A stretch of 60,507 nt of DNA. Source: Gemmatimonadota bacterium (GTDB lineage: Bacteria; Gemmatimonadota; Gemmatimonadetes; Gemmatimonadales; GWC2-71-9). Both the position numbers and the translations under genes were made by a program. Positions 1,221-55,856 of this stretch are shown one piece after another. The first letter of the stretch is position 1, and the number at the start of each line of letters is the position of its first letter. The notes beneath the pieces are model-generated. The model was not told the DNA's origin. It did not search any database and saw only the letters and a list, made by a program, of their open reading frames with translations. The stretch spans positions 1 to 60,507 of the forward strand of contig JANRJZ010000166.1 in NCBI GenBank assembly GCA_033763675.1, written 5' to 3'.

Positions 1221-3461
1221 ATGGCCCCGCACCTGGAGACTGCCCTGACCGTGCTGGACCTTGAAGCGGACGCGCTGGAGCAGCGGATCGCGGGGCTGTT
1301 GCAGCAGATGACCCTGGAGGAGAAGATCGGCCAGCTGGCCCTGGTGCCGGGCGCCAGCGGTCACGTCCCCGATGCCCTGGGCCAGGCCCTGCGGGAGGGA
1401 CGGGTCGGTTCCATCCTGAACGAAGTGGACCTCGACACCGTCAACGAACTGCAGCGCATCGCGGTCAAGGAAAGCCGCCTCGGCATCCCGCTGCTGATCG
1501 GCCGCGACGTCGTCCACGGATTCAAGACGGTCTTCCCGATTCCGCTGGGACAGGCGGCGACCTGGAATCCCCGGCTGGTGGCCCACGCCGCCCGGATCGC
1601 CGCGCTGGAGGCGGCGGCGGCGGGGGTCAACTGGACGTTCGCGCCGATGGTGGATATCGGCCGGGACCCGCGCTGGGGCCGGGTCGCCGAGGGCCTCGGC
1701 GAGGATCCCTGGCTGGCCGGCCTCCTCGCCGCGGCCATGGTGCGCGGCTTCCAGGGCAGCGACCTGGCCGAGCCCGGCAACATCGCCGCCTGCGCCAAGC
1801 ACTTCGCCGGCTACGGCGCGTGTGAGAGCGGCCGCGATTACAACACCACCTCGGTGCCCGAGCTGGAGCTGCGCAACGTGCACCTCCCACCCTTCAAGGC
1901 GGCCGTGGATGCCGGGGTCGCGAGCATCATGACCTCATTCAGCGATCTCAACGGCGTCCCCGCCACCGCCAACGAATGGCTGCTCCGCGACGTGCTCCGC
2001 CGGGAGTGGGGCTTCGACGGGCTGGTGGTGAGCGACTGGGAATCGGTGCGCCAGCTGTCGGTGCACGGGCTCACCACCGACGACCGGGCATCAGCCCGGG
2101 AGGCCGCTGCCGCCGGGTGCGACGTCGAAATGACCAGCGCCACTTACGCGGAGCACCTGCCATCGCTGGTGCGGGACGGCGAGGTGCCGCTGGAGCAGGT
2201 CGATGCGATGGTGGCCAACGTGCTGCGGCTGAAGCTCCGGCTCGGGCTCTTCGAGGATCCGTACACCGACGCCGCCCGCTTCCCGGCGGCGCTTAACGCC
2301 GAGCACCTCCACGCCGCCTACGAGGCCGCGGTGGAGAGTGTCGTCCTGCTCAAGAACGCACACGGGCTGCTCCCGCTCCATGCCGACCGGGCACGCGCCC
2401 TGGCGGTGATCGGCCCGCTGGCCGATGACCCGTATGAGCAGCTCGGCACCTGGGTCTTCGACGGCGTCCCCGAGGCGAGCCGCACTCCGCTCTCGGCGAT
2501 CCGGCAGCTGGTGGGTGACCGGGTGGTGCTTCATCACGCCCGTGGACTGGCGACGACCCGCAGCCGGGACCAGGAGGGGTTTGGCGAGGCGGTCGCCTGC
2601 GCCGCGGCCTCCGACGCGGTAATCCTCTTCCTGGGAGAGGAAGCCATCCTCTCGGGTGAGGCGCATTGCCGCGCCGATATCGGGCTGCCCGGCGGCCAGG
2701 AGGCGCTCCTCGACACGCTGGCCGGGACGGGCAAGCCCATTGTGCTGGTGCTGATGGCCGGCCGCCCCCTCGCGCTGGAGCGGGTCGTGGACCGGGTGTC
2801 GGCGCTGGTGTACGCCTGGCATCCCGGCACCATGGGCGGCCCGGCGATCGCGGACCTCCTGTTCGGCGGGGCCGCGCCCTCGGGCAAGCTGCCAGTCACG
2901 CTGCCCAGGGTCACCGGCCAGGTCCCGATCTACTATGCGCACAAGCACACCGGCAAGCCGCCGACCCCCGAAAGCTTCGTGCACATCGACGCGATCACGC
3001 CCCGGGCGCCGCAGGTGTCCGTCGGCAACACCTCGTACCATCTCGACGTATACTACACGCCGCTCTTCCCCTTCGGGTTCGGGCTCGGCTACACCGAGTT
3101 CGAGTACCAGGACATCGCGGTGAGCAGCCCGGAACTGACTCCGGAAGGCAGCATCACCGTGAGCGCCGTGGTGAGCAACGCGGGCGATCGGGAGGGGGAC
3201 GAGGTGGTCCAGCTCTACATCCGGGACCTCGCGGGCAGCACCACCCGGCCGGTGCGGGAGCTCAAGGGCTTTACCCGGGTCCGGCTGGCGCCCGGGGAGC
3301 GCCGCACCGTGGGCTTCACGCTCACGGCAGCCGACCTCGCCTTCACCGGCCGGGGCATGCGGTTCGGCGCGGAACCGGGCGGCTTCCACGCCTGGATCGG
3401 CGGCAGCTCCGAGGCCACGCTGCGGACCGCATTCGTGCTTGCCGAGGCCTCTTCCTCGTGA
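1221..3461 (+). CDS. bglX: GH3 beta-glucosidase (BglX-like, with C-terminal Fn3-like domain)
   Basis: Motifs MTLEEKIGQL, SRLGIPLL, RDPRWGR, CAKHFAGYG, VVSDW (nucleophile), GDEVVQLYIRD...RPVRELKGF. ATG 1221 was chosen over the ORF start at 1068. Confidence 0.92.
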   Translation: MAPHLETALTVLDLEADALEQRIAGLLQQMTLEEKIGQLALVPGASGHVPDALGQALREGRVGSILNEVDLDTVNELQRIAVKESRLGIPLLIGRDVVHGFKTVFPIPLGQAATWNPRLVAHAARIAALEAAAAGVNWTFAPMVDIGRDPRWGRVAEGLGEDPWLAGLLAAAMVRGFQGSDLAEPGNIAACAKHFAGYGACESGRDYNTTSVPELELRNVHLPPFKAAVDAGVASIMTSFSDLNGVPATANEWLLRDVLRREWGFDGLVVSDWESVRQLSVHGLTTDDRASAREAAAAGCDVEMTSATYAEHLPSLVRDGEVPLEQVDAMVANVLRLKLRLGLFEDPYTDAARFPAALNAEHLHAAYEAAVESVVLLKNAHGLLPLHADRARALAVIGPLADDPYEQLGTWVFDGVPEASRTPLSAIRQLVGDRVVLHHARGLATTRSRDQEGFGEAVACAAASDAVILFLGEEAILSGEAHCRADIGLPGGQEALLDTLAGTGKPIVLVLMAGRPLALERVVDRVSALVYAWHPGTMGGPAIADLLFGGAAPSGKLPVTLPRVTGQVPIYYAHKHTGKPPTPESFVHIDAITPRAPQVSVGNTSYHLDVYYTPLFPFGFGLGYTEFEYQDIAVSSPELTPEGSITVSAVVSNAGDREGDEVVQLYIRDLAGSTTRPVRELKGFTRVRLAPGERRTVGFTLTAADLAFTGRGMRFGAEPGGFHAWIGGSSEATLRTAFVLAEASSS

Positions 3462-3474
3462 ATCCCCGAGACCC

Positions 3475-5331
3475 ATGATGAGTGTCATGCCCCGCGATCG
3501 CGAGATCGCGCAGAAGGTCGACCAGCTGCTTGGCCGGATGACGGTCGACCAGAAGCTCGGCCAGATGATCCAGGCCGAACGGATGGCCGCCACGCCGGAG
3601 GATGTGAAGGCCCACCACCTGGGCTCGATCCTGAGCGGCGGGGGCTCCACCCCCGGGCAGAACCGCCCGGCAGACTGGATCGCCATGAACGACGCCTACT
3701 GGCTCGCCTCGGTCAGCGAGGAGGCCGGCCGGGTGCCCATCCCCCTGCTCTACGGGGTGGATGCCATTCACGGGCACGCGAACGTCCTGGGCGCCACCGT
3801 CTTCCCCCACAACATCGGCCTGGGCGCAGCGCACGATCACGACCTGCTGGCGCGGATCGGGCAGATCACCGCCCGGGAGATCCTCGCCACCGGCGTGGAA
3901 TGGACCTTTGCGCCCACCCTCGCCGTGGCCCGGAACATCTGCTGGGGCCGCACCTACGAGAGCTACTCCGAGGACACGGCCCTGGTTGCCTCCTACGCGG
4001 GGCGCTTCGTCCGCGGCCTGCAGGGCGACCTCGGCCGCGATGCGGTCGTGGCATGCGCCAAGCACTGGGTGGGCGATGGCGGCACCACCAACGGCGTGGA
4101 CCAGGGCGATACCGTGCTCCCCGAAGCGGAGCTGGAGCGGGTGCACATGGCGCCCTACCTGCCGGCACTCGAGGCGGGCGTCCTGACGGTCATGGCCTCG
4201 TTCAATAGCTGGAACGGACAGAAGTGCCACGGCCACCGCTACCTGCTCACCGATGTGCTGAAAGGGCGGCTGGGATTCTCCGGGTTCGTCATCTCCGACT
4301 GGGACGGCGCTGACTACCTCTCGAAGGACTTCAGCGAGGCAGTCGCCCTGGCGGCCAACGCGGGGATCGACATGTTCATGGTGTCGGCCGACTGGCGGCG
4401 CTGTCTCGCCACGCTGCAGAGGCTGGTGGGTGCGGGGGTGGTGCCGATGGAGCGCGTCGACGATGCGGTCCGACGCATCCTGACCGTGAAGCACCGCTAC
4501 GGGTTATTCGAGCGGCCTCGCCCCGCGGAGCGCTACTGGTCCCGCCAGGACTGCCTGGGTGCACCGGCGCACCGGGCGGTGGCACGGGAGGCGGTGCGCA
4601 AGTCGCTCGTCCTGCTCAAGAATGCGGGCAATCACCTCCCGCTCGACCGCCGGGCCCGGATCCTGGTGGCCGGGAAGAACGCTGACAATCGGGGGCACCA
4701 GTGCGGCGGCTTTACGGTCGCCTGGCAGGGGACCTCCGGCAACGACCACATCATCGGCGGTACCTCGATCTGGGAAGGGATCCGCGCGGTGGCTCCGGGG
4801 GCGGTCCTCAGCGTGGACGGCGGCGCAGCCGACCCGGCCGCGCATGACGTCGCCGTCGTGGTGATCGGGGAGCGCCCCTATGCGGAGGGGATGGGCGATA
4901 TCCGGACGGAGGAGGTGATCGGCGCCGGGTCCGGCCCGCGGACCGGACCCGGTGCGTCCTCAGCGGGTGACCCCGTCGGGGCCGGATCGGGTCCGGGAGG
5001 GATCACGGCCCGGCTGCCGGCCTACGGCAAGTCGCTGGAGCTTGCCACGCTCCATCCCGAGGACCTGGCAACCATTCGCGCCATCACCGCCCGGAAGATT
5101 CCGGTCGTTGCGGTGCTGGTGTCGGGGCGCCCGCTGGTGGTCACCCAGGAGCTCGCCGAGGCCTCCGCCTTCGTCGCGGCCTGGCTGCCTGGCTCCGAGG
5201 GGCAGGGAGTGGCGGACGTCCTGTTCGGAGACCACCACTTCCAGGGCAGGCTTCCCTTTTCCTGGCCCGCCGGCACCGGCCAGGCGGGGGGGCCGCTCTT
5301 CCCCCTCGGCTTCGGGCTCACGATCGGGTAG
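3475..5331 (+). CDS. GH3 beta-glucosidase / exo-1,3-1,4-beta-glucanase type
   Basis: Motifs GSILSGGGS, YGVDAIHGH, TVFPHNIGLGA, WGRTYESYSED, CAKHWVGDGGT, FVISDW, AAWLPGSEGQG. Confidence 0.9.
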   Translation: MMSVMPRDREIAQKVDQLLGRMTVDQKLGQMIQAERMAATPEDVKAHHLGSILSGGGSTPGQNRPADWIAMNDAYWLASVSEEAGRVPIPLLYGVDAIHGHANVLGATVFPHNIGLGAAHDHDLLARIGQITAREILATGVEWTFAPTLAVARNICWGRTYESYSEDTALVASYAGRFVRGLQGDLGRDAVVACAKHWVGDGGTTNGVDQGDTVLPEAELERVHMAPYLPALEAGVLTVMASFNSWNGQKCHGHRYLLTDVLKGRLGFSGFVISDWDGADYLSKDFSEAVALAANAGIDMFMVSADWRRCLATLQRLVGAGVVPMERVDDAVRRILTVKHRYGLFERPRPAERYWSRQDCLGAPAHRAVAREAVRKSLVLLKNAGNHLPLDRRARILVAGKNADNRGHQCGGFTVAWQGTSGNDHIIGGTSIWEGIRAVAPGAVLSVDGGAADPAAHDVAVVVIGERPYAEGMGDIRTEEVIGAGSGPRTGPGASSAGDPVGAGSGPGGITARLPAYGKSLELATLHPEDLATIRAITARKIPVVAVLVSGRPLVVTQELAEASAFVAAWLPGSEGQGVADVLFGDHHFQGRLPFSWPAGTGQAGGPLFPLGFGLTIG

Positions 5332-12592: not shown

Positions 12593-12621
12593 TTGACACA
12601 ATAGAACGATCGTGCTTTTAT
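12593..12621 (+). promoter_or_regulatory. Sigma70-type promoter of tetR with TetR operator in the spacer
   Basis: TTGACA (12593-12598), 17 nt, then TTTTAT (12616-12621). The spacer contains the near-palindrome AGAACGA/TCGTGCT (12603-12616). ATG lies 5 nt after the -10. Confidence 0.62.
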
Positions 12622-12626
12622 GGGCC

Positions 12627-13232
12627 ATGTCCAAGGGCACCACGACCCGCCGTTCCATCCTCGACCACGCCATCGCCCTGGCCAGCGAGGTCGGGCTGGG
12701 CGGGCTCACCATCGGATCCCTGGCCGAGGAGCTGGACCTCTCCAAGAGCGGGCTGTACGCCCACTTCGGGTCCAAGGAGGCGCTGCAGATCCAGGTGCTG
12801 GACCACGCCGCCCTCAACTTCACCGAGGCGGTCGTCCGGCCGGCGCTCAAGGAACCCCGCGGCGCCCCCCGGATGCGGGCGCTGTTCGAGCGCTGGCTGG
12901 CGTGGGACCGGGACGGCGTCCTCCCGGGGGGCTGTCTCTTCGTCGCCGCGGCCTCGGAGCTGGACGACCGGGACGGCCCGGTCCGCGAACGGCTGGTGGA
13001 ACTGCAGCAGACCTGGATCGATGTGGTCCGGGTCTCGGTGGAGAAGGGAATCGAGTCGGGCGCCTTCCGCCGCGACGCGGACCCGGCGCAGTTCGCCCAG
13101 GACCTCCACGGCGTCATGCTCGGCTTCCACCACGGCGCGCGCCTGATGCGCGATCCCGACGCGGAGCCGCGCGCGCGGAAGGCCTTCGAGCGGTTGCTGG
13201 AGGCAGTGGCGGCGGTCCGGCAACTGCCGTAG
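12627..13232 (+). CDS. TetR/AcrR family transcriptional regulator
   Basis: HTH GLTIGSLAEELDLSKSGLYAHFGSKEAL; C-terminal GGCLF motif. Confidence 0.93.
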   Translation: MSKGTTTRRSILDHAIALASEVGLGGLTIGSLAEELDLSKSGLYAHFGSKEALQIQVLDHAALNFTEAVVRPALKEPRGAPRMRALFERWLAWDRDGVLPGGCLFVAAASELDDRDGPVRERLVELQQTWIDVVRVSVEKGIESGAFRRDADPAQFAQDLHGVMLGFHHGARLMRDPDAEPRARKAFERLLEAVAAVRQLP

Positions 13233-13270
13233 TTCGTCCCGTCGTCCGGTCGTTACCGTCAGGAGTTCAC

Positions 13271-14161
13271 ATGCTCGCACTCGCTCGGCTGGCGCTCGGG
13301 ACCGCGCAGCCCCTCGCACCGGACTTCGCCGCCTGGCTGGGCGAACGGCTCTTCTTCACCCCGCCGCGCCAGTCGCTCCCCGAGGGCGCCCGGCCGCTGC
13401 TCCACCGCGGGCGCCGGTTCCGGATCCTGGTGGACGGCCGCGAGATCCAGGGCTGGCGCTGGGGCCGCGGTCCCGCCGTCTACCTGCTGCACGGCTGGGG
13501 CGGGCGCGGCGGGCGGTACCTGCACTACATCGAGCCGCTCACAGAGCTGGGCCACTCCGTCGTGGTCTTCGATGCGCCGGGCCACGGCGCCAACCCGCAC
13601 GGCATGAGCTCGGCGCCGGAGTTCGCGCGGGCGCTCCAGGCGGTGGTCGACCTGTGCGGGCCGGCCCGTGCCGTGGTGGCCCACTCGCTGGGCGCGGCGG
13701 CGGCGGCGCTCGCGGTCCGCTGGGGCCTCCGGCCCGAGCGGCTCGTGCTGCTGGCGCCGCCCGCGGACGTGACCGAGTTCTTCGAGCCCTTTGCCCGGGC
13801 CGTGGGGCTGACGCAGGCCGTGATGGCGCGGCTGGTGGCCCGGAGTACCCGCCGGATCGGGCTTGCCTGGTCCGAGCTCGACATCCGGCGCCACGCCCCG
13901 AAGGAGCCGCTGCCGCTCCTCGTGGTGCATGACGTGGGCGACACGGTCGTGCCCTTCGCGGACGGCGTCGCGGTCGCGGAAGCCTGGGGCGGCCAGCTGC
14001 ACGCCACCCAGGGGCTGGGTCACAGCGGCCTGCTGCGGGACCGCGAGGTGCTGCGCACCGTGGCCGCCTTCGTCACTGGTGCCGCACCCGAGGATGTCGC
14101 GGCGGCAGTGGATCCGGCGGCGAAGGCGGAGCGGTGGTTGTGGGAGAGGTATCGGCGGTAG
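13271..14161 (+). CDS. Alpha/beta fold hydrolase
   Basis: RBS AGGAG upstream; LLHGWGG, FDAPGHG, AHSLG nucleophile, VHDVGDTVVP, GLGH. The TAG stop lies inside the 9-nt repeat. Confidence 0.88.
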   Translation: MLALARLALGTAQPLAPDFAAWLGERLFFTPPRQSLPEGARPLLHRGRRFRILVDGREIQGWRWGRGPAVYLLHGWGGRGGRYLHYIEPLTELGHSVVVFDAPGHGANPHGMSSAPEFARALQAVVDLCGPARAVVAHSLGAAAAALAVRWGLRPERLVLLAPPADVTEFFEPFARAVGLTQAVMARLVARSTRRIGLAWSELDIRRHAPKEPLPLLVVHDVGDTVVPFADGVAVAEAWGGQLHATQGLGHSGLLRDREVLRTVAAFVTGAAPEDVAAAVDPAAKAERWLWERYRR

Positions 14162-14188
14162 CGACGGTAGCGACGGTAGCGACGGTAG
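14156..14188 (+). repeat. Tandem 9-nt repeat (CGGTAGCGA) x ~3.7, left arm flanking the four-helix-bundle gene
   Basis: Read directly: cggtagcga cggtagcga cggtagcga cggtag. Confidence 0.95.
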
Positions 14189-14198
14189 GGTGGAGGGC

Positions 14199-14561
14199 TT
14201 ACGGACGCAGTTTCCCCACGACCTGGTACAAACGCCAGGTTACGATTCCGGCGCGATTCCGGAGCTCCTCAACCTCGGCGTGTGAGTCCGGCGGCAAGTA
14301 ACCCAGATCCTTCGACAGCCGAAGCAGATAGGTCAGCTCCGCGAGCGACCCGAGCGAAATATCGAGGAATCGCCGGAACTCCCTGCCACCTCGCTTCGCG
14401 GAGCCCTCCGCGATGTTGGTAGGAATGGATACAGCCGCGCGCCGGATCTGGCTGACCAACCCGAACCGTTCCTGGGCTGGCCACCCCTCCGTCAACCGGT
14501 ACACCTGCACCACTAGCGCATGGCAGAGCTGCCACGCCTCGAGCCGTTCAAAGGGAGCCAT
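14199..14561 (-). CDS. Four helix bundle protein (23S rRNA-IVS protein / Avd-like family)
   Basis: 120 aa with FERLEAWQ, ERFGLVSQIRRAAVSIPTNIAEG and FLDISLGSLAEL hallmark motifs. It is antisense to its neighbours and visibly more A/T-rich. Confidence 0.9.
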   Translation of the reverse strand: MAPFERLEAWQLCHALVVQVYRLTEGWPAQERFGLVSQIRRAAVSIPTNIAEGSAKRGGREFRRFLDISLGSLAELTYLLRLSKDLGYLPPDSHAEVEELRNRAGIVTWRLYQVVGKLRP

Positions 14562-14604
14562 GGCTCAGCATGGCGTCTCTCCGTCAACGCATCATCAACC
14601 GCTC

Positions 14605-14667
14605 CCGTTACCGTCGCTACCGTCGTTACCGTCGTTACCGTCGCTACCGTCACTACCGTCGCTACCG
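14605..14667 (-). repeat. Tandem 9-nt repeat (TCGYTACCG) x ~7, right arm; reverse complement of the left arm
   Basis: Read directly: ccgttaccg tcgctaccg tcgttaccg tcgttaccg tcgctaccg tcactaccg tcgctaccg. Confidence 0.95.
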
Positions 14668-14681
14668 TACATTCCCCCCTG

Positions 14682-15947
14682 ATGACCTCCCCCTCGCCAG
14701 CCCCGAATACCCCCGCCGATCTCGGTCGGTTGCGGATCAATCGTGACACCCCGCCCCCCGGCCTGCGGCGAGCGCTCTGGCGCAACCTGATCCTCGCGGC
14801 GGTGGCCCTGGCGCTGGTCGCGATCGTCCTCTACCTGCGGCGCGAGCAGGCGGTGCCGGTGGAGGTGTTCACCGTAACCTTGAACGGCGGCGGGGGCGCC
14901 GCGGGCGCCGCGAGCGCCAGCGTGACGGCCAACGGCTACGTGGTGGCGCGGACCCGAGCGGCGGTGTCGGCCAAGCTCGCGGGGCGGCTGGCGGAGCTGC
15001 GGGTGAGCGAGGGATCGCAGGTGCGCGCCGGCGAGGTGATCGCGCGGCTCGAGAACGACGAGTACGCGGCGCAGGTGAGTCAGGCCGAGGCGAATCTGGC
15101 CACCGCGCGGGCGGAGCTGATCGAGGCGACGGCGCGGCGGGACCAGCTGACCCGCGAGGCCCGGCGGGTCACTGACATCCGGCAGGAGAATCCCGACCTG
15201 GTGGCGGAGGAACAGGTGGAGGCGGCGCGGAGCGCGGCAGACCAGGCCGTGGCGCGGGTGGACGCCGCGGCGGCGCGGGTGCAGGCGGCGGAGGCGGAGC
15301 GGCGCTTCGCGGAGGCCACGCTCGAGTCCACGTTGATCCGGGCGCCGTTCACCGGCACCGTCCTGCGAAAGGAAGCGGAAGTGGGAGAAGTCGTGGCGCC
15401 TTCGGTCGGCGGTGGACTCACCCGCGGTGCGGTCGTCACCATGGCGGACTTCGCCACGCTCGAGGTGGAGGTGGACGTCAACGAGGCGTATATCGCGCGA
15501 GTGACGAACGGCCAGGGGGCCCGTATCACCCTCGACGCCTATCCCGACACCGGCTTCCGGGGTCGAGTGCGGCAGGTCGTCCCCACCGCCGACCGGCAGC
15601 GGGCCACGGTGCAGGTGAAGGTCGCGATCCTCGATCGCGACCGGCGCATCCTCCCCGAGATGGGGGCGCGGGTGGATTTCCTGGAGCCCGAGGCGCCGCG
15701 CCGTGACACCACGGCGGCCCGGACCCCGCGGATCCGGGTGCCCGCCGCCGCGGTACGCGTCCTGGAGGGGCAGTCGGTGGTCTGGCTGGTGCGGCAGGGC
15801 CGGCTGGTATCGAAGGTGGTGGACGCCGGCCCGGTGAGCGGCGGCTTTCGCGAGGTGCGCTCCGGCCTGGTGGGCGGCGAACAGCTGCTGACGGGGGGCG
15901 TGGAGGAGCCGAAGGAGGGGATGGCGGTGGTGGTGGCAGGGCGGTAG
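14682..15947 (+). CDS. Efflux periplasmic adaptor / membrane fusion protein (MacA/HlyD-like)
   Basis: N-terminal TM; VTANGYVVA, lipoyl halves (VSAKLAGRL...IRAPFTGTV), coiled coil, EVEVDVNEA, PTADRQRATV, ILPEMGARV. Confidence 0.9.
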   Translation: MTSPSPAPNTPADLGRLRINRDTPPPGLRRALWRNLILAAVALALVAIVLYLRREQAVPVEVFTVTLNGGGGAAGAASASVTANGYVVARTRAAVSAKLAGRLAELRVSEGSQVRAGEVIARLENDEYAAQVSQAEANLATARAELIEATARRDQLTREARRVTDIRQENPDLVAEEQVEAARSAADQAVARVDAAAARVQAAEAERRFAEATLESTLIRAPFTGTVLRKEAEVGEVVAPSVGGGLTRGAVVTMADFATLEVEVDVNEAYIARVTNGQGARITLDAYPDTGFRGRVRQVVPTADRQRATVQVKVAILDRDRRILPEMGARVDFLEPEAPRRDTTAARTPRIRVPAAAVRVLEGQSVVWLVRQGRLVSKVVDAGPVSGGFREVRSGLVGGEQLLTGGVEEPKEGMAVVVAGR

Positions 15948-15975
15948 CGACGGTACCGTCGCTACCGTCGTTACC
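15942..15975. repeat. Gene-less palindrome of the 9-nt repeat ('empty site')
   Basis: CGGTAGCGACGGT|ACCGTCGCTACCG is a perfect 26-bp palindrome (15942-15967), followed by a further TCGTTACC. It includes the adaptor gene's TAG. Confidence 0.92.
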
Positions 15976-16001
15976 AACGATCACAATACACCTGGAGCCC
16001 C

Positions 16002-16694
16002 GTGATGCCTCTCGTCGAAATCCGCGCCGTGGACAAGGCCTTCCAGCGCGACTCCGAGCGGGTGGAGATCTTCACCCGCCTCAACCTCGACATCGAGGAA
16101 GGCTCCTTCACCGCGCTGATGGGGCCGTCGGGGTCGGGGAAGTCCACCCTGCTCAACCTGGTGGCGGGGCTCGACCGGCCCACCAGCGGCAGCGTCCGGG
16201 TGGCCGGGGCGGAGGTGAGCGCCATGAGCCCGAACCAGCTGGCGCCGTGGCGGGCGCGGCACATCGGGTTCGTCTTCCAGCAGCTCAACCTGCTTCCGGT
16301 GCTCACCGCCTGGCAGAACGTGGAGCTACCGCTCCTGCTCACCAGCCTCTCGCGACGGGAGCGGGACGAACGGATCCGGCTGGCGCTCGGCGTGGTGGGG
16401 CTCGAGGACCGGATGAAGCACTTCCCCCGGCAGCTCTCGGGCGGGCAGGAGCAGCGGGTCGCGATCGCGCGGGCCATCGTGGCGGACCCGACCCTGGTAC
16501 TGCTGGATGAGCCCACCGGCCAGCTCGACGCGAAGAGCTCCCAGGACGTGCTGGCGCTGCTCAGCCGGCTCAACGACGAGTTCAAGAAGACCATCATCAT
16601 GGTGACCCACGACGCCCACGCGGCGGCGTCGGCGCGGACGGTGCTGCACCTCGAGAAGGGGCAGCTCATCGAGCGTCAGGGGGCGATGGCATGA
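16002..16694 (+). CDS. ABC transporter ATP-binding protein (LolD/MacB type)
   Basis: GPSGSGKST, LSGGQEQRVAIARA, LLDEPT, MVTHD. Confidence 0.94.
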   Translation: MMPLVEIRAVDKAFQRDSERVEIFTRLNLDIEEGSFTALMGPSGSGKSTLLNLVAGLDRPTSGSVRVAGAEVSAMSPNQLAPWRARHIGFVFQQLNLLPVLTAWQNVELPLLLTSLSRRERDERIRLALGVVGLEDRMKHFPRQLSGGQEQRVAIARAIVADPTLVLLDEPTGQLDAKSSQDVLALLSRLNDEFKKTIIMVTHDAHAAASARTVLHLEKGQLIERQGAMA

Positions 16695-17833
16695 AGTACC
16701 TCCATCTGGTGCTGGCCAACCTCGGCCGTCACAAGCGCCGCACCCTGCTCACGATCGCCAGCGTGGCGCTGGCGCTCTTCCTCTTTGCCTCGCTCCGCAC
16801 CGTGGTCACCACCCTTGCGGCGGCGGCGCAGTTCGGCAGCGCCCGGCGGCTGGTGAGCACCAACGCCACCGGGATCGTCTTCCCGCTCCCGCTCAGCTAC
16901 GCCAACAAGCTGCAGGCCACCCCGGGCGTCGAGGCCGTTTCCTGGGCCAACTGGTTCGGCGGCCGCTACGGGGACAACAAGCGGTTCTTCGCCCAGTTCG
17001 CGGTGGACCCCGCCTCCTACCTCGAGATGTACCCCGAGATCTCCCTGCCCGAGGACCAGAAGCAGGCCTTCATCCGGGAACGCTCGTCGGCGATCATCGG
17101 CCGGCGGCTGGTGGACATCTTTGGCTGGAAGCTGGGGCAGGACGTGACCATCCAGGGCACCATCTACCCCGGCGACTGGACCTTCACCATCCGCGGCATC
17201 TACACCCCGACCGACGCGGTCATCAACGACGACATGATGCTCTTCCAGCACGAGTACCTGGAGGAGCGGACCGGGCGGCCGGGGCAGGCGGGGTGGTACG
17301 TGCTCCGCATCGATGACGGCGACCAATCCGCCAGCATCGCCAAGGGCATCGACGACCAGTTCCGCAACTCGAATGCCGCCACCAAGACCGGCACCGAGCA
17401 GGCGTTCAACGCCAGCTTCGCCACGATGTGGGGCAACGTGAGCCTGCTGATGGGGACCATCGGCATGGCGGTGGTCTTCGCCATCCTGCTGGTCACCGCC
17501 AATGCCATGATGATGAGCGCCCGGGAGCGGACCCGGGAAGTGGCGGTGCTCAAGACCATCGGCTTCACCGACCGCACCCTCTTTGGGCTGGTCATGGTCG
17601 AGGCGGGGCTCATCGCCGGGATCGGCGCGGTGCTCGGGCTGGGCGGCGCCAAGCTGCTCTACAAGTCCACCAACTTCAACGCCGGCGGGTTCCTTCCCGG
17701 CTTCGACGTGACCACCTCCACCCTCCTCATCGGCGCCGGGGTGACCCTGCTGCTGATGCTGGCGAGCGGGCTGGTGCCGGCGGTGCGGGCGGCCCGGCTC
17801 CCGGTGGTGCAGGCGCTCCGGAGGGTCGAGTAA
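16691..17833 (+). CDS. ABC transporter permease (MacB/FtsX family)
   Basis: NLGRHKRRTLLT, a periplasmic core and RERTREVAVLKTIGF; ATGA overlap with the ATPase. Confidence 0.9.
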   Translation: MKYLHLVLANLGRHKRRTLLTIASVALALFLFASLRTVVTTLAAAAQFGSARRLVSTNATGIVFPLPLSYANKLQATPGVEAVSWANWFGGRYGDNKRFFAQFAVDPASYLEMYPEISLPEDQKQAFIRERSSAIIGRRLVDIFGWKLGQDVTIQGTIYPGDWTFTIRGIYTPTDAVINDDMMLFQHEYLEERTGRPGQAGWYVLRIDDGDQSASIAKGIDDQFRNSNAATKTGTEQAFNASFATMWGNVSLLMGTIGMAVVFAILLVTANAMMMSARERTREVAVLKTIGFTDRTLFGLVMVEAGLIAGIGAVLGLGGAKLLYKSTNFNAGGFLPGFDVTTSTLLIGAGVTLLLMLASGLVPAVRAARLPVVQALRRVE

Positions 17834-18999
17834 TGAAGATCCCCCTGATCTACAACCTGCGGAGCGTCATGCAGCGGCCCACCTCCACCGCCTTCACCGC
17901 GATCGGCATCGGGCTGGTGGTGGCGGTGTTCATCGGGATGCTGGCGCTGGCCAACGGCTTCCGCGCCGCGCTGACGCGCACAGGCTCCGACCGGAATGCG
18001 CTGGTGCTCCGTCGCGGCGCCGATTCCGAGCTTTCCAGCGGGCTCGACCGCGAGGCGGTGAGCATTCTCGCCGCCTCCCCCCACGTGGCCCCCGGGCCCG
18101 ATGGGCGGCCGCTCTTCTCGGCCGAGTCCTACCTGCTGATCCCGCTCTCCCGGCGCGGCGCCGACACCAATGCGGTGGCCAACGTGGTGGTGCGCGGCGT
18201 GGCGGCCGCCGCATGGCAGGTGCGGCAGAACCTGGTGATCACCGAAGGGCAGGCGCCGGTGCCGGGACGCAACGAGGTCTGCGTGGGCCGCACCATGGCG
18301 CTCAAGTTTCCCAACACCGATGTGGGGCAGGCGCTCCGCTTCGGCGGGCGGGACTGGGCGGTGGTCTGCCACTTCACCGCCGACGGCTCCTCCTTCGAAT
18401 CCGAGGTCTGGGGGGACGCGGAGCAGTTCCAGCCGGTCTTCCGGCGTGAGGGCTTTTCTTCCGCCAGCTTCCGGCTGGCCGATCCCGCCGCCTTCGAGGA
18501 GGCGAAGCGGGTCCTCGAGGCCGATCAGCGGCTGCAGGTGGATGTGTACCGCGAGGCCGCGTTCTACGCCGAGCAGTCCGAGGTGCTGGGCCGGATCCTG
18601 GAGATCCTCGCATTCCTCATCACCAGCATCATGGCGGTGGGCGCGATCTTCGGGGCGGTGAACACGATGTACGCCGCCGTGGCCGCGCGCGCGCCGGAGA
18701 TCGCGGTCCTCCTCACCCTGGGCTTCCACCCGCGGAGCGTGCTGCTCAGCTTCCTGGTGGAGTCGGCGCTGATCGCGCTGGTGGGCGGCGTGCTGGGGAT
18801 CCTCCTGGTGCTGCCGGTGAACGGAGTGGTCACCAGCACCACCAACTGGGCCAGCTTCAGCGAGATTGCCTTCAGCTTCCGCATTACCCCGGCGCTCCTG
18901 CTCTCCGGCGTGGTCTTCGCCGCGGTGATGGGGACCCTGGGCGGCTTCTTCCCGGCCTGGCGCGCCGCGCGGCGGCCGGTGGTGCAGGCGTTGAGATAG
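17833..18999 (+). CDS. ABC transporter permease (MacB/FtsX family)
   Basis: TAATG coupling with the upstream gene; YNLRSVMQRP, NTMYAAVAARAPEIAVLLTLGF, GGFFPAWRAAR. Confidence 0.9.
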   Translation: MKIPLIYNLRSVMQRPTSTAFTAIGIGLVVAVFIGMLALANGFRAALTRTGSDRNALVLRRGADSELSSGLDREAVSILAASPHVAPGPDGRPLFSAESYLLIPLSRRGADTNAVANVVVRGVAAAAWQVRQNLVITEGQAPVPGRNEVCVGRTMALKFPNTDVGQALRFGGRDWAVVCHFTADGSSFESEVWGDAEQFQPVFRREGFSSASFRLADPAAFEEAKRVLEADQRLQVDVYREAAFYAEQSEVLGRILEILAFLITSIMAVGAIFGAVNTMYAAVAARAPEIAVLLTLGFHPRSVLLSFLVESALIALVGGVLGILLVLPVNGVVTSTTNWASFSEIAFSFRITPALLLSGVVFAAVMGTLGGFFPAWRAARRPVVQALR

Positions 19000-19019
19000 G
19001 CGGTGGGGCGGTAGGGCGC

Positions 19020-19089
19020 GTGATGCGCGCGGGCGGGTGATGCGAGCGGGCGGGTGATGCGAGCGGGCGGGCACAAGGCCCGCCCGTAC
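19020..19089. repeat. 17-nt tandem repeat x3 ending in a REP-like palindrome
   Basis: GTGATGCG(C/A)GCGGGCGG at 19020, 19037 and 19054, then GGGCGGGC-ACAAG-GCCCGCCC-GTAC (19065-19089). Confidence 0.85.
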
Positions 19090-19286
19090 GGGATCCGCTT
19101 GCTGGGGCTCCTCTGCCGGATTCCCCTTCGCCGAGCCTGCCCCGCCCAATCGCCCAATCGGCCCTTGCCCTCCGGCGCCGCCTGACAGACTTTTCAGACG
19201 GATCCTGGCTGCGCCCCCGGAGAGCGCGCCGGCGATCCCCCGAGGCTCCCGGAGAGCCCGGCCCCCCCCTGCCAGCGAGTTACCTG

Positions 19287-20057
19287 ATGCGCCGCCGGAC
19301 CCTGTGGCTGTCCCTGCCGTTGTGCCTGTGTGTCTCGCTCATTCCCGCCTGCAGCAGCAAGACCCCTTCCCAGGAGGTCGTGCCGATCCAGACGATGGAC
19401 ACGCTGCGCGCCTCCGAGCCGACGGTCATTACCCGAGTGGACACCATTCGGGTGACGGACCCGGCGCTCGAGGCCCGCGTGGCGCGGCTGGACCTGGAAC
19501 TCGCCGAGCGGGAGGGGGAACTGAAGGAGATGGAGTCACGGCTGGCGGAGGCCCGGCTCGAGGTGGTCCGGACCATGGCCAAGCTGCAGACCGTCGCCAC
19601 CCGGGCGGAGGCGGCCTCGGCGATGGCCGAGGCGGAGATCGCGGTGCAGGGGCTCAAGGCCGTGGGGGGGACGGAACTGCGCGGCGCCGTGGCCGAGTCG
19701 CAGCAGATGCTGGCCCAGAGCGGCGAGGAGTTCGGGCGCCAGAATCATGGCGGGGCGCTTTACCTGGCCACCCAGGCCAAGAACATTGCCACGGCAGGGA
19801 GGGCCCGGGTGGCGGGGGTGGAGCGGGCTGGGCGGCGGCAGGGGGAGGTGCTGTTCGCCGCGCCGGTGCGGCTCGAGGTCACCAGCCGGGCCAACTTGCG
19901 TGACGCGCCAAGCACCGGCGCCCGGGTGGTTATCACCCTGGAGAAGGGGGCGCCGCTCATCGCGATTTCGCACGTCGGGAACTGGCTCCGGGTGACGGAC
20001 GGCAGCGGGCGGGAGGGGTGGATCTTTCAGGAACTGGTGAGCCGGGGCGGGAGGTAG
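19287..20057 (+). CDS. Lipoprotein with coiled-coil and C-terminal bacterial SH3 domain
   Basis: Signal peptide ending IPAC; ANLRDAPSTGARV...GNWLRV...GREGWI is an SH3b signature. Confidence 0.75.
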   Translation: MRRRTLWLSLPLCLCVSLIPACSSKTPSQEVVPIQTMDTLRASEPTVITRVDTIRVTDPALEARVARLDLELAEREGELKEMESRLAEARLEVVRTMAKLQTVATRAEAASAMAEAEIAVQGLKAVGGTELRGAVAESQQMLAQSGEEFGRQNHGGALYLATQAKNIATAGRARVAGVERAGRRQGEVLFAAPVRLEVTSRANLRDAPSTGARVVITLEKGAPLIAISHVGNWLRVTDGSGREGWIFQELVSRGGR

Positions 20058-20058
20058 G

Positions 20059-20131
20059 AGGCGATTAGACGATTGGGCGATTAGGCGATTGGGTGATTGG
20101 GCCGCCTAATCGCCCAATCGCCCAATCGTCC
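20059..20131. repeat. Inverted arrays of 8-nt tandem repeat (RGGCGATT x5 / AATCGCCC x3) between convergent genes
   Basis: Read directly; the two arms are reverse complements and can form a hairpin. Confidence 0.92.
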
Positions 20132-20132
20132 C

Positions 20133-21887
20133 TTACCGCCGCACCCGATCCCTTCCCTCCCGCTTGGCCCGGTACAGCGCCTCGTCCGCCGCGGCGACGA
20201 GGGATTCGGGGGTGAAGCCCTTCGAGGGCGACTGCGTGACGCCGACGCTGGCGGTGACGGTGCCGCCGTCGAAGTTCTCCGACCGGAGCCGGTCCCGGAG
20301 CCGCTCCGCCAGGTCCACCGCGCCGTCCACGCCGGTGTTGGGCAGGATCACGATGAACTCCTCCCCGCCGTACCGGGCCGCGCAGTCGCCGGCGCGGACC
20401 GTCTCCCGCAGCAGCTGCCCCACCTGGCGCAGCACCGCGTCCCCGGCGAGGTGCCCGTGGGTGTCGTTGTAGCGCTTGAAGTGGTCGATGTCGAGCAGCA
20501 GCAGCGAGACCGGGTGGCCGTGGCGCCGGGCACGCTCGCACTCCGTCGCGAGGGCGTGCTCCAGGTGGCGGCGGTTGTAGAGGCCGGTGAGCTGGTCGGT
20601 GATGGAGAGTTGCTCCAGCTCCTGCCGTCCTTCGCGGAGCCGGGTCACCATGGTGTTGAACACCCGGGTGAGCGCGCCCACCTCGCCGCCGATGGTCACC
20701 GGGAGGTCCACCGCGAGGTCACCGCCGGCCACCTTGGAGGCGCCCTGGATCAATCGGTCCAGCGGCCGCACGATGAAGAGCCCCACGCTGTAGGCCAGCC
20801 CGGAAACGACGAGCAGGATCCCTGCGATGAGCCAGAGGGTCATGAGCCGCAGCCGGTCCATCTGGTTGTAGGCCTCGTCGGCTGGGATATCCGCCACCAC
20901 CAGCCATGGGGTGCCGGGGACCGGCGTGGCGCGGGCGAAGTAACTGGTCCCCTCGCTGCCCTCGATCTCGATGGGCCCCTCGGAGGGGATGGAGGCTTCG
21001 GGCGGCTGGGTGGTCGTGGCGGTGGGAAGCAGCCGGGTCAGCCGGGCCGGCGGGTAGATGGGGTCGCCGGAGGTGGGCACCCGGTGGCCCGCGCCCAGGC
21101 GGAACTCGCCGTCCCGGGTCACCAGTGATACCCGGAGCAGCGAAGCCAGCGGGAGGTCGTGGATCAAGGCAGCGCCGCGGCGCAGGTCCACCACCGCGGT
21201 GAGACTGCCGAGGACCGCGCCGCGGGCGTCGGTCACGGGCACCGCCACCACCGTGCTCGCGACGGTATCGCTGTCGCGCCGCCCCGGCCCGACCACGGCG
21301 TCATTGAGGTTGACCCGTTCCAGCCAGTTCGGGGGCAATGCGCGGGCGTCGGGGATCGGTCCGGTGGAGGCCAGCGTCCGGCCGGCGGGGTCCAGCACCG
21401 CCAGGGCCCGGTACTCGCCGATCCGGCGCTGGATGGATGCGAGGTAGCCCGAGAGCCGGGTGTTGTCGCGTCGGCCGACGTTTTCCGAGACTTCGTAGGA
21501 GCTGGCGAAGACCCGGAGCTCGAGCACCCGCTCCTTGAGCCAGAGGTCGAGGGTGCGGGCTGCCTGCATGCTGGCGCCGTTGAGGTCTGCGGTGAGCCGG
21601 GCGGTGACGGCGCGCTGGCTCTGGGCGTAATAGATGATGGCGGTCAGCAGGGAGGGGAGGAGGGCCGCCCCGACTGCCAGCACCAGGATCTTCTTCCGCA
21701 GGCTGTCCAGGCTGAACACCCGCAACGCCCGGCCGATCTGCTCTTCCCAACCGCTCAACTGGGCTCCGGATGGCTCATGGGGGTGGGACGACTTCGGGGA
21801 ATGTGGCCGGGGACGGCGTGGAGGCCAAGGGCGGCTGGGGGGAGGACGGATGGCCAGGGGCTGGTTCCCGGCCGAATTAGTCCCCAT
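20133..21887 (-). CDS. Membrane diguanylate cyclase (Cache sensor - HAMP - GGDEF); true start probably ~21720-21760
   Basis: Two TM segments flank a sensor domain; HAMP (RPLDRL...GEVGAL); TDQLTGLYNRR; DIDHFKRYNDTHGHLAGD; I-site RAGD; active site GGEEF. Confidence 0.88.
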   Translation of the reverse strand: MGTNSAGNQPLAIRPPPSRPWPPRRPRPHSPKSSHPHEPSGAQLSGWEEQIGRALRVFSLDSLRKKILVLAVGAALLPSLLTAIIYYAQSQRAVTARLTADLNGASMQAARTLDLWLKERVLELRVFASSYEVSENVGRRDNTRLSGYLASIQRRIGEYRALAVLDPAGRTLASTGPIPDARALPPNWLERVNLNDAVVGPGRRDSDTVASTVVAVPVTDARGAVLGSLTAVVDLRRGAALIHDLPLASLLRVSLVTRDGEFRLGAGHRVPTSGDPIYPPARLTRLLPTATTTQPPEASIPSEGPIEIEGSEGTSYFARATPVPGTPWLVVADIPADEAYNQMDRLRLMTLWLIAGILLVVSGLAYSVGLFIVRPLDRLIQGASKVAGGDLAVDLPVTIGGEVGALTRVFNTMVTRLREGRQELEQLSITDQLTGLYNRRHLEHALATECERARRHGHPVSLLLLDIDHFKRYNDTHGHLAGDAVLRQVGQLLRETVRAGDCAARYGGEEFIVILPNTGVDGAVDLAERLRDRLRSENFDGGTVTASVGVTQSPSKGFTPESLVAAADEALYRAKREGRDRVRR

Positions 21888-41711: not shown

Positions 41712-41739
41712 CGGTAGCGACGGTAGCGACGGTATCGTC
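41712..41739 (+). repeat. Third locus of the 9-nt repeat (CGGTAGCGA x ~3)
   Basis: cggtagcga cggtagcga cggtatcgtc, immediately after the esterase TAG. Confidence 0.88.
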
Positions 41740-44070: not shown

Positions 44071-44170
44071 AGGGAAGGGGGAAGAGGGAAGCGGGTGCCG
44101 GCGGTGCTTCCCCCTTCACACTTCCCGCTTCCCGCTTCCCGTTTCCCGTTTCCCGTTTCCCGTTTCCCGG
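44071..44170. repeat. 7-nt tandem repeat (TTCCCGY x7) preceded by a degenerate complementary arm (RGGGAAG x3)
   Basis: ttcccgc x2, ttcccgt x4 and ttcccgg at 44122-44170; agggaag/ggggaag/agggaag at 44071-44091. Confidence 0.9.
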
Positions 44171-54105: not shown

Positions 54106-54153
54106 GGGCGATTGGGCGATTGGGCGATTGGGCAATTGGGCGGTTGGGCGATT
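54106..54153. repeat. 8-nt tandem repeat GGGCRRTT x6 downstream of ettA
   Basis: gggcgatt x3, gggcaatt, gggcggtt, gggcgatt. Confidence 0.92.
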
Positions 54154-54179
54154 GGAGGATCTCCGAGCCGCCGAGCCGC

Positions 54180-55856
54180 CTACCGGTGCAGCGGCTTGAA
54201 CTTGACCCGGTGCGGCTGGCTGGCATCCACGCCCTTCCGCTTCCTGAAGTCGGCGGCGTAGTCCTGGTAGTTCCCTTCGAACCAGGTCACTTCGCTGTTG
54301 CCCTCGAAGGCGAGGATGTGGGTGGCGATGCGGTCCAGGAACCAGCGGTCGTGGCTGATCACCACGGCGCACCCCGCGAACCCGAGCAGGGCATCCTCGA
54401 GGGCGCGCAGCACGTCCACGTCGAGGTCATTGGTGGGCTCGTCCAGCAGCAGCAGGTTGCCGCCGGTCTTGAGCAGCTTGGCCATGTGCAGCCGGTTGCG
54501 CTCGCCTCCGGAGAGATCCTTCACCCGCTTCTGCTGGTCGGCCCCGCGGAAGTTGAACCCGGTGCAGTAGGCCCGGGCGTTGACCTTGCGGGTGCCGAAC
54601 AGCAGCTCGTCCTGGCCGCCCGAAATCTCCTCGTAGACGGTCTTGCTGCCGTCGAGGCTGTCCCGGGACTGGTCCACGTAGGACAGCCGGACGGTCTTCC
54701 CGATCACCAGTTCGCCGCTGTCGGGCGTCTCCTGCCCGGCGATCATCCGGAACAGGGTGGTCTTGCCGGCGCCGTTGGGGCCGATCACCCCGACGATGCC
54801 GCCGCGCGGCAGGGCGAAGTTGAGGTTCTCGAACAGCAGCCGGTCGCCGTAGCCCTTGCTCACGTCCTTGGCGATGACCACCTCGTCGCCCAGCCGCTCG
54901 GGGACCGGGATCATGATCTCGACCGTGCCCTCGCTCTGCCGCTCCGCCTCCTCCCGCAGCTGCTCGAACCGCTGCAGCCGGGCCTTGCTCTTGGCCTGGC
55001 GCGCCTTGGGGGCCATCCGTACCCACTCGAGCTCCCGCTCCAGGGTCTTCTGCCGGGCGCTGGCCTGCTTCTCCTCGACGGCCATCCGCTTGGCCTTCTG
55101 CGCCAGCCAGCTGGAGTAGTTCCCCTCCCAGGGGATCCCCGCGCCGCGGTCCAGCTCCAGGATCCACTTGGCCACGTTGTCGAGGAAGTACCGGTCGTGG
55201 GTGATCGCCACCACGGTCCCGGGGAAGGTCTCCAGGTACTTCTCCAGCCACGCGACGCTCTCGGCGTCGAGGTGGTTGGTGGGCTCGTCCAGCAGCAGCA
55301 TGTCGGGCTCGGAGAGCAGCAGGCGGCAGAGCGCCACCCGGCGCCGCTCGCCGCCCGAGAGCCGGGTCACGTCCGCGTCCCCCGGCGGGAGCCGGAGCGC
55401 ATCCATGGCCAGGTCGAGCTTGTGGTCCAGCTCCCAGAGGTTCAGGTGGTCGATCTGCTCCTGCAGGCGCCCCTGCTTCTCCAGCAGCTTCGTCATCTCG
55501 TCGTCGCCCATCGGCTCGGCGAACTGCATCGAGATCTCGTTGAAGTCATCCAGCAGCTTGCGCAGGTGCGCCACGCCGTCCTCCACGTTGCCCCGGACGT
55601 CCTGCGCGGGGTCGAGCTGCGGCTCCTGCGGCAGGGACCCGATCCGGGTCCCCGCGAGCGGCTTCGCCTCGCCCTGGAAGTCCTTGTCCACCCCCGCCAT
55701 GATGCGCAGCAGGGTGGATTTCCCCGCGCCGTTCGCGCCCAGCACGCCGATCTTGGCGCCGGGGTAGAACGACAGGTAGATGCCCTTGAGGATCTCTTTG
55801 CTGGGGGGCACGACCTTGCGGAGGTCGCGCATCGTGAAGATGTATTCGCCGGCCAT
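54180..55856 (-). CDS. ettA: Energy-dependent translational throttle protein EttA (ABC-F)
   Basis: [41 protein letters not shown]...[34 protein letters not shown]. Confidence 0.95.

Follow-up and report, generated by a model that had tools for sequence, protein, structure and literature searches.

A perfect palindrome between macA and macB of a Gemmatimonadota bacterium is probably a gene-less member of a lineage-specific hairpin family

The stretch of DNA analysed here (hereafter the window) covers positions 1 to 60,507, 60,507 nucleotides in all, of contig JANRJZ010000166.1 from the Gemmatimonadota bacterium assembly GCA_033763675.1. At 15942-15967, between a macA-type membrane-fusion gene and its macB-type operon partner, the window holds a perfect 26-bp palindrome, which we found to be a short gene-less member of a lineage-specific hairpin family that may turn over by repair and replacement. 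In an element of this kind, a G-rich tandem array comes first and its reverse complement second. Together with a nearby cassette (14156-14669), in which two such arrays enclose a gene for a PF05635 protein, the family behaves as a co-evolving, fast-turnover selfish repeat system.

The palindrome, CGGTAGCGACGGT followed by ACCGTCGCTACCG, has no loop content and no open reading frame (ORF). It consists of 1.4 units of the left arm of the cassette and 1.4 units of its right arm, joined via GGTACC, and a further variant right-arm unit, TCGTTACC, extends beyond the perfect part to 15975. The macA ORF ends at 15947, its TAG (15945-15947) being preceded by CGG within the first repeat unit; likewise, the alpha/beta-hydrolase ORF at 12620-14161 stops at a CGG-TAG (14156-14161) that is the start of the left arm of the cassette. 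These observations bear out a preliminary description of the sequence, which had reported a perfect palindrome that begins, like the cassette, at the CGG-TAG stop of the upstream gene and equals the cassette arms joined without an insert. The palindrome is not a product of chance, since perfect zero-spacer palindromes with arms of at least 13 occurred 8 times in the 3.96-Mb genome versus 0 times in a block-shuffled copy, and since the window held 31 unit matches (at most one mismatch) against 18.2 ± 4.7 expected, a number reached in none of 100 shuffles. The length of the palindrome may be under-called in short-read assemblies. Its predicted RNA fold had an energy of -37 kcal/mol (z = -5.4), equalled by none of 200 shuffles. 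The tail 3′ of the stem is AACGATCACAAT and contains no T-run, no terminator-like site was found in 13900-16200, no sigma-70-like consensus at the palindrome, and no rRNA match in 13000-20500. Rfam gave no match at the palindrome, the only hits being sub-threshold miRNA-hairpin matches at the hairpin of 20.06-20.13 kb. Thus, the predicted stem-loop between macA and macB is not terminator-like, and its likeliest effect would be mRNA processing or 3′-end protection, or none.

The 9-nt unit has a core, GACGGTA, and two looser positions. Over 154 units, G1, G4, and G5 carried 1.7 to 1.8 bits of information and position 8 carried 0.40 bits. In G000, the source genome of the window (95% complete, 314 contigs, 70.8% G+C, 3.96 Mb), we found 42 arrays of at least two units, which correspond to ~25 real loci. 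At least eight are zero-loop palindromes joined via GGTACC (C111, the 15942 site, C178:45492, C197, C211, C220, C56, and C76:18630), about six have loops of 11 to 55 nt with small GC-rich stem-loops, and many consist of one arm, frequently at the end of a contig. One locus of the 9-mer family holds a PF05635 gene; thus, a filled version does exist elsewhere, as the preliminary description had supposed. The two arms of one hairpin are not mirror copies, as they differ in unit number and in variant units. The loops at C132:9483-9583, C178:54836-54935, and C27:5339-5457 each contain a small GC-rich stem-loop and so form nested hairpins; two of these three stem-loops are alike (CCCTCCGG…CCGGAGGG type). 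We also considered that short-loop hairpins might be deletion derivatives of the cassette. This idea was not supported, because the loops, inspected by eye, hold GC-rich stem-loops and lack the TTGA-TTGA motif of the cassette interior.

The family is confined to a narrow lineage. We counted 94 matches to the pattern GACGGTANNGACGGTA in G000 and 0 to 1 per genome in 120 others of the same taxonomic family, a set that includes only 2 members of the genus. Among 39 genus genomes, the pattern occurs 286 times in G162, 94 in G000, 59 in G013, 30 in G020, 13 in G005, 8 in G004, and 0 to 4 times in the rest. At G162:C6:26626-26677 (~13250 of the window), the hydrolase orthologue apparently contains at least six 9-mer units within its coding sequence; the hydrolase gene of G000 has one near-unit only, at 13250-13258.

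Ten genomes hold a macA orthologue, and the 9-mer hairpin is kept at the macA-macB junction in one of these ten relatives with the operon. This is G162, whose flanks are 93% identical at the DNA level; its hairpin has 3+3 units around a GAAG loop, no gene, and the same outer boundaries as that of G000 (…GGGCGGTAG and GTTACCAACGATCAC…). In the other nine, the hairpin is absent or different. G015 (95% amino acid identity) has a GAGACGG 7-mer array that starts from the same TAG, at which the contig breaks; G016 has a CACAGAG-type hairpin, G020 and G038 other single arrays, and G036 short repeats only. No array was found at the junction in the more distant G004, G034, G032, G040, and G026. Four metagenome runs, from four studies, provided strain-level evidence. 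A contig of run X3 is identical across the palindrome; one of run X5 is identical to the window and ends within the palindrome at 15971, so that the site is not spanned. Run X4 has ~42 extra nt at the palindrome and run X9 has 138 nt replacing 70, changes that are too small for the ~420-nt interior of the cassette. All four runs contain the cassette at 14.2-14.7 kb. Thus, the comparison of relatives and metagenome strains indicates that the element is recent, heritable, and variable in length. Compared with the more distant relatives, G000 has an insertion here, the palindrome, which overwrites the last macA codons and supplies the stop; it was inherited from a common ancestor with G162, with whole units gained or lost between strains.

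In the same metagenome data, we examined joints that skip 418 to 439 nt as candidate excision alleles. Their sides are only 21 to 36 nt long and all lie inside arrays, and their inserted letters match other loci of the family, such as the loop at C76:20355-20385; thus, they do not represent excisions.

The gene-holding relative of the palindrome lies 5′ of macA. Its arms are 35 and 62 nt long, its unit is GACGGTAGC (examples of non-cognate units being GGCGATTG and GGCGGCTC), and the only protein it encodes is a 120-aa PF05635 protein; no transposase is present. The protein matched PF05635 with an E value of 1.6e-33 and TIGR02436 with 107.7 bits against an NCBIfam cut-off of 24. Its nearest solved structure is PDB 2gsc, XCC0516 of Xanthomonas campestris (E 2.8e-25), an entry with five chains. 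The Avd models PF22296 (23.1 bits) and NF033474 (23.7 bits) both scored under their cut-offs, a weak likeness. By this homology, the PF05635 protein may be an Avd-like pentamer. A TTGA-N6-9-TTGA motif precedes the PF05635 start in 40 of 96 genus loci, in 28 of them at a fixed 36 to 39 nt, and was found neither on the reverse complement nor in shuffles. This suggests a promoter- or operator-like element; we use only this wording because the boxes lie 9 and 20 nt from a −10-like hexamer. The short distance to the start suggests either a leaderless mRNA or an operator. A sigma-70 promoter was considered and rejected, as no consensus match was found and the spacing of the TTGA boxes to the −10-like hexamer is non-canonical.

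The PF05635 gene is closely linked to inverted arrays. All seven PF05635 genes of G000 lie between inverted arrays by eye, with pairs found by script at six, and their units all differ: CGGTAGCGA, GACGGCAR, GGGCGATT, GGCGGCTC, GGCGGTTC, GGGGAARC, and GGRGAAC. Across the genus, 35 of 39 genomes hold 96 PF05635 loci, and paired inverted arrays were detected by an automatic test at 65. Of the loci without such a pair, most are flanked by an array on a single side or by arrays whose periods differ, and about seven have no nearby array and encode more divergent, longer proteins. At the phylum level, a Pfam search found the gene in 96 of 151 genomes, and paired arrays flank it at 18 of 27 additional loci (one of the 27 being from G200, whose genome is flagged as unpublished). 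Most units have the GRCGG core in common and differ in a variable tail. Unit and protein diverge together: among pairs without flank homology, the units differ by at most one change in 2 of 2 pairs at a protein identity of at least 80%, 13 of 43 at 65 to 80%, 35 of 332 at 55 to 65%, 41 of 944 at 45 to 55%, and 14 of 2239 below 45%. When each of 34 flank-homology groups was represented by a single locus, protein identity and unit distance were correlated with a Spearman rho of −0.31, a value as negative as which arose in none of 2000 label shuffles. Because related genomes are not independent, we read this correlation as co-divergence and not as recognition. The closest PF05635 orthologue in G162 (88% identical in amino acids) has the same 9-mer arms and stands at another intergenic site, ~4.9 kb away.

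Hairpins and PF05635 genes also tend to occur in the same genomes. In samples of 100 kb, no hairpin was found in any of four PF05635-negative genomes, and the PF05635-positive genomes G117, G170, G195, G245, and G000 had 0, 11, 1, 2, and 1, respectively; with nine small samples from related genomes, this co-occurrence is suggestive only. Several families of G000, among them CACGGAAG, GGGAAGA, and GGGCGGTA, have no cognate gene in the assembly.

The 9-mer family is one of a handful in this genome. Tandem Repeats Finder detected 1143 non-redundant arrays in G000 with a period of 7 to 9 and at least 2.5 copies, including 167 of the GGCGGCTC type, 155 of GGGCGATT, 63 of GACGGCAG, 61 of GGGGAAAC, 38 of GGGGAAC, 35 of the 9-mer, 27 of CACGGAAG, and 23 of GGGAAGA. 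These form 124 inverted pairs. Hairpins account for 68 of them (gap below 100 nt), and PF05635 genes are found in a distinct class whose gaps measure 420 to 466 nt. The hairpins have a strict polarity. With gaps below 150, the G-rich arm came first in 61 of 70 cases and the C-rich arm in none (nine were ambiguous), and at gaps of 150 to 300 the ratio was 4 to 0; unrelated neighbouring arrays with gaps above 520 gave 13 versus 14. Cassettes were G-first in 47 versus 3 cases in the genus and 15 versus 1 in the phylum, and hairpins of sampled relatives in 12 versus 1. Because a hairpin reads alike on both strands, the G-first order is a real property of the elements. Placement is also non-random, as 44 of 82 hairpins have an edge within 25 nt of the stop of a long ORF, compared with 4.3 expected (maximum 11 in 200 random trials).

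Hairpins of the CACGGAAG family (C27:28084-28855, C55:5744-5813, C292:13502-13582, and others) have conserved outer inverted ends, CTGCACGA … TCGTGCAG; such miniature inverted-repeat transposable element (MITE)-like ends are absent from the other hairpin families of G000. Two further perfect palindromes recur in this genome, GTAGGGGCGACCGG joined to CCGGTCGCCCCTAC and GGGGGGCCAAGGCA joined to TGCCTTGGCCCCCC (C143:18483-18518, C76:3906-3933, and C3:10647-10670; C42:62493-62524 and C46:899-928), and are possibly repetitive extragenic palindromic (REP) sequences of a REP-associated tyrosine transposase (RAYT).

How such sites change was read from three genomes (G000, G162, and G015) at six sites. 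At J1, the hydrolase-macA junction, an intact homocysteine S-methyltransferase gene (PF02574) is present in G015, with an array of the 8-mer TACCGCCC after it. In G162, a zero-loop 9-mer palindrome lies at the hydrolase stop; the methyltransferase gene is present but internally deleted, and a C-rich arm of nine units ends at the same base before macA as in G000. In G000, the G-rich and C-rich arms have the same outer boundaries, with the PF05635 gene between them and no methyltransferase gene. The methyltransferase gene of G015 is itself bracketed by a ~55-nt non-tandem inverted repeat (L043 ~3060-3130 and ~4170-4240); thus, genes other than PF05635 can occupy long hairpin loops here. At J3, after the permease genes, G162 holds a PF05635 cassette, G015 has GGGGAAC and CCCGTCGG arrays, and G000 has a degenerate GGCGGTRG remnant with other repeats. 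At the position of the G162 cassette, 19019-19075 of the window, a 17-nt unit, GGGCGGGTGATGCGAGC, is repeated in tandem about three times, with a GC-rich stem-loop after it. At J4, the hairpin of G000 is replaced within identical outer boundaries by a 9-mer palindrome in G162 and by arms from two different families in G015. At 44.1 kb, a 99-nt hairpin of G000 replaces ~35 to 45 nt of the spacer of the relatives and alters the last two codons. At 54.1 kb, G162 has a clean empty site (CATGGC/CGCCTA), G015 a shorter GGCGGCTC-type hairpin of ~60 nt, and G000 a hairpin of ~85 nt in which the G-rich arm is now GGGCGATT x6; this empty/filled pair has no target-site duplication, the shared sequence or microhomology amounting to at most 2 nt. 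These comparisons indicate that hairpins are replaced within fixed outer boundaries, the arms jointly or singly, and not simply inserted.

The coordinates of the features are collected in Table 1. Two further differences between the genomes lie elsewhere in the window. At ~27666, ~250 bp found inside an ORF of G162 and G015 are missing from G000, where the gene is probably broken, and at ~34095 a 1.6-kb gene-bearing segment of G015 and G162 is missing from G000, its edges being without repeat arrays.

Table 1. Positions of the palindrome, the cassette, their neighbouring genes, and other repeat elements in the window.
Feature	Position	Strand	Description
Palindrome, G-rich (5′) arm	15942..15954	+	CGGTAGCGA + CGGT; includes macA stop TAG 15945-15947
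Palindrome, C-rich (3′) arm	15955..15975	+	ACCG + TCGCTACCG + TCGTTACC; last unit variant, outside the perfect palindrome
macA, HlyD/MacA-type membrane-fusion gene	14682..15947	+	last codons and stop within the repeat
macB, ABC ATPase, MacB-type operon partner	16002..16694	+	27 nt 3′ of the hairpin; FtsX-type permease genes next
Cassette, G-rich arm	14156..14190	+	(CGGTAGCGA)x3 + CGGTAGGG; starts at hydrolase CGG-TAG stop
PF05635 / TIGR02436 four-helix-bundle ("23S rRNA intervening-sequence") protein gene	14199..14561	-	120 aa; in the loop
Direct repeat TTGA-N7-TTGA	14584..14598	-	37 nt upstream of the PF05635 start
Cassette, C-rich arm	14608..14669	+	~6.5 units of TACCGTCGN; ends 13 nt before macA start
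J4 zero-loop hairpin, GGCGATTR family	20060..20128		G162, identical outer boundaries: 9-mer palindrome
Third 9-mer locus of the window	41712..41737	+	single G-rich array of ~2.9 units, directly after TAG
7-mer (GGGAAGN) hairpin	44071..44169		no counterpart in G015 and G162, which have short, array-free intergenic stretches
Chimeric hairpin	54106..54180		GGGCGATT x6 on one side, GAGCCGCC x2 on the other

As to the route behind the turnover, we tentatively propose that hairpins may be seeded, resized, overwritten, and sometimes loaded with a cassette by host recombination or repair, guided by homology or microhomology. Other arrays with a similar core (GRCGG) would serve the repair as template or homology, and breaks at the tips of hairpins or cruciforms would be the probable trigger; transposase-type cut-and-paste and reverse transcription would not be the route. 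The cassette and its arms would descend and diverge together, which would account for the separate unit family of every PF05635 paralogue. Both a common G-first ancestor and homology-guided replacement would keep the polarity. Several observations weigh against this explanation or restrict it. The proposed repair and replacement mechanism is deduced from sequence comparison, the RNA runs contained 5 to 10% of the sampled words only, which bears on any role at the RNA level, and the strict G-first polarity could equally be explained by a dedicated enzyme. The outer non-repeat inverted ends of the CACGGAAG family hint at a transposase-like route for at least that family. The correlation between protein and unit could be produced by plain co-descent, and the flank-based test of orthology may miss orthologous loci. 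Furthermore, G117 has two PF05635 genes without a single hairpin in its 100 kb, and no PF05635 match was found in G013 despite 59 pattern matches. Arrays can therefore persist without the gene, although a ~450-bp gene between repeats may also have been easily lost from the 270-contig assembly of G013.

The same evidence allowed us to weigh other explanations. The preliminary description had offered three readings of the palindrome, a pre-insertion target, a post-excision scar, or a non-autonomous copy, within a model of filled and empty mobile units. Only the copy fits; at the orthologous sites, we found length variants and no gene-sized insert. The model itself stands insofar as gene-holding and gene-less members coexist, but not in treating this site as a target or a scar. 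Excision of a PF05635 cassette from the 15942 site with rejoining of the arms is very improbable. It has in its favour only the formal identity of the palindrome to two joined arms, and it conflicts with the gene-less G162 orthologue, which has a 4-nt loop, and with the origin of the apparent excision joints from other loci; moreover, recombination between inverted repeats inverts the intervening segment and does not delete it. A target could take the form of a landing pad, in which a zero-loop palindrome captures a cassette with cognate arms by double crossover or gene conversion. Three findings are consistent with it: the equal outer boundaries at J1 of G162 (palindrome and separate C-rich arm) and G000 (PF05635 between the arms), the exchange of whole hairpins of different families within identical boundaries at J4, and the presence of the cassette at J1 in G000 and at J3 in G162 within one syntenic block. 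The support from J1 and J4 for such a generalised pad would, however, be indirect, no insert was found at the centre of the palindrome in G162, G015, or any of the four metagenome runs, and the change at J1 additionally requires the loss of the methyltransferase gene. The PF05635 copies of G000 and G162 share 81 to 83% DNA identity, less than their flanks (88 to 93%), so that a recent hop of the cassette is not supported. Taken together, we regard a landing pad as rather unlikely. An ordinary regulatory hairpin of macAB, selected at this site as a terminator, attenuator, or stabiliser, would benefit from the −37 kcal/mol stem that sits 27 nt before the macB start, just 5′ of its GGAG. But a T-run is missing, nine of the ten operon-bearing relatives have no such hairpin or another sequence in its place, and the same repeat occurs at ~25 unrelated loci, which makes conservation as a terminator, and this reading as a whole, hardly credible.

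Movement of gene-less copies by an enzyme acting in trans (a RAYT, an unknown transposase, or a complex including the PF05635 protein), in the manner of MITEs or REPINs (paired REP sequences), would account for dispersed families with strict end polarity, for the single gene type with cognate arms, for the extra outer inverted ends of the CACGGAAG family, and for the occurrence of hairpins in four of five PF05635-positive versus none of four PF05635-negative genomes in the 100-kb samples. We consider it unlikely, as the single clean empty/filled pair has no target-site duplication, insertions replace sequence, and arms are unequal in unit number (for example, 4 versus 18) and may even belong to different families. 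To our knowledge, no transposase chemistry has been described for a four-helix bundle of 120 aa. Writing of the G-rich repeats by a reverse transcriptase from the C-rich 3′ arm of the cassette, as in telomerase or diversity-generating retroelements (DGRs), was attractive because it predicts the G-first polarity, through G-strand addition to both 3′ ends of a break; it was rejected, as PF00078 was found in none of six hairpin-rich genomes (G000 and five relatives). In another reading, the arrays would be binding sites, with a separate 7-nt core for each PF05635 paralogue, bound as single-stranded RNA or DNA, and with the hairpins as substrate. The separate unit family of each paralogue, the co-variation of protein and unit, the nearly free position 8 next to the constrained G1, G4, and G5, the GRCGG core with variable tail common to many families, and the five chains of the homologue 2gsc would all be compatible with this. 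Yet the co-variation would follow just as well from co-descent, arrays occur in G013 in the absence of the gene, and several G000 families have no cognate gene; such binding is thus quite unlikely in our view. We give as little credence to a more far-reaching version, in which PF05635 proteins would be specificity factors of a repeat-propagating system without transposase or reverse transcriptase. Here, each paralogue would be specific for its own heptamer-core unit and would guide the repair carried out by the host at hairpin tips, whereby arrays of its family would be written, lengthened, and copied to new gene ends. If this were true, gene-less hairpins and the stems of classical rRNA intervening sequences (IVSs) would be footprints of a PF05635 system, a symbiosis like that of REPINs and RAYTs but built on an Avd-like pentamer.

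Gene-less hairpins that turn over by repair and replacement, our preferred reading, resemble several known systems without coinciding with any. REP sequences and bacterial interspersed mosaic elements (BIMEs) with RAYTs are dispersed hairpin repeats, in which a single-copy gene is flanked by cognate inverted repeats and several families can occur per genome. The elements described here share the dispersed, intergenic, hairpin-forming copies. However, the flanked gene encodes a four-helix-bundle PF05635 protein and not an HUH Y1 (tyrosine) transposase, so that this is not a REP/RAYT pair, and the arms are tandem arrays of variable length instead of a fixed imperfect palindrome. As in MITEs, short non-coding copies ended by inverted repeats share these ends with a gene-carrying relative; the elements are nevertheless not classical MITEs, because they lack target-site duplication and transposase, replace sequence, and have unequal or chimeric arms. 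The cassette protein belongs to the same fold family as Avd, as indicated by the sub-cut-off Avd scores and the 2gsc match, but with no reverse transcriptase in the six genomes and no pair of template and variable repeats, the system is not a DGR.

The closest counterpart of the cassette is the 23S rRNA IVS of Coxiella burnetii with its S23p ORF, which the portion of the source used here describes as a selfish element whose stem is cut and excised by RNase III (PMC4990558). Both have a small PF05635-type ORF in an element whose ends pair into a long stem, and both are considered selfish. The palindrome has such a stem (13 bp perfect, lengthened in the predicted fold) but no ORF; it is its sister element at 14156-14669 that carries one. 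In contrast to an IVS, the present elements lie between protein genes (macA and macB for the palindrome) and not in helix 45 of 23S rRNA, their stems are inverted arrays of short tandem repeats, and most copies, including the palindrome, lack an ORF.

The arrays themselves resemble those of Rehm et al. 2015 (PMC4692102). According to the sections of that article consulted, GGGAATC-type heptamers form arrays of 2 to 26 copies within ~50 bp of stop codons in Xanthomonas and Nostoc, with 70 to 75 convergent inverted pairs per Xanthomonas genome and a unit number that varies between strains while the type is kept; the arrays were interpreted as G-quadruplex formers, with no associated gene or mobile element, and the same sections contain no mention of S23 or xcc0516 that we could find. 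Short G-rich tandem units near gene ends, convergent pairs, and variable copy number are common to both. Here, however, the unit is 9 nt long with a 7-nt core, GACGGTAGC has a single GG and no G-tract of three or more, and the arrays go together with a PF05635 gene and have a strict G-first polarity. In the literature searched, we found no published link between a PF05635 gene and tandem repeats.

Both the 23S rRNA IVSs and the 7-nt-type repeats of Xanthomonas and cyanobacteria have been known for decades without an origin or mechanism. The present data bring inverted-array hairpins, a four-helix-bundle gene with cognate arms, strict polarity, and nucleotide-exact replacement of one family by another into one frame, and make it testable whether the protein binds its own unit and whether hairpin tips are recombination hot spots. 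Because these elements rewrite gene termini and intercistronic regions and break short-read assemblies, they matter for annotation and for the reading of operons in Gemmatimonadota and beyond. Set beside these systems, the palindrome between macA and macB is a little-studied kind of selfish repeat, fast-changing and not a terminator.

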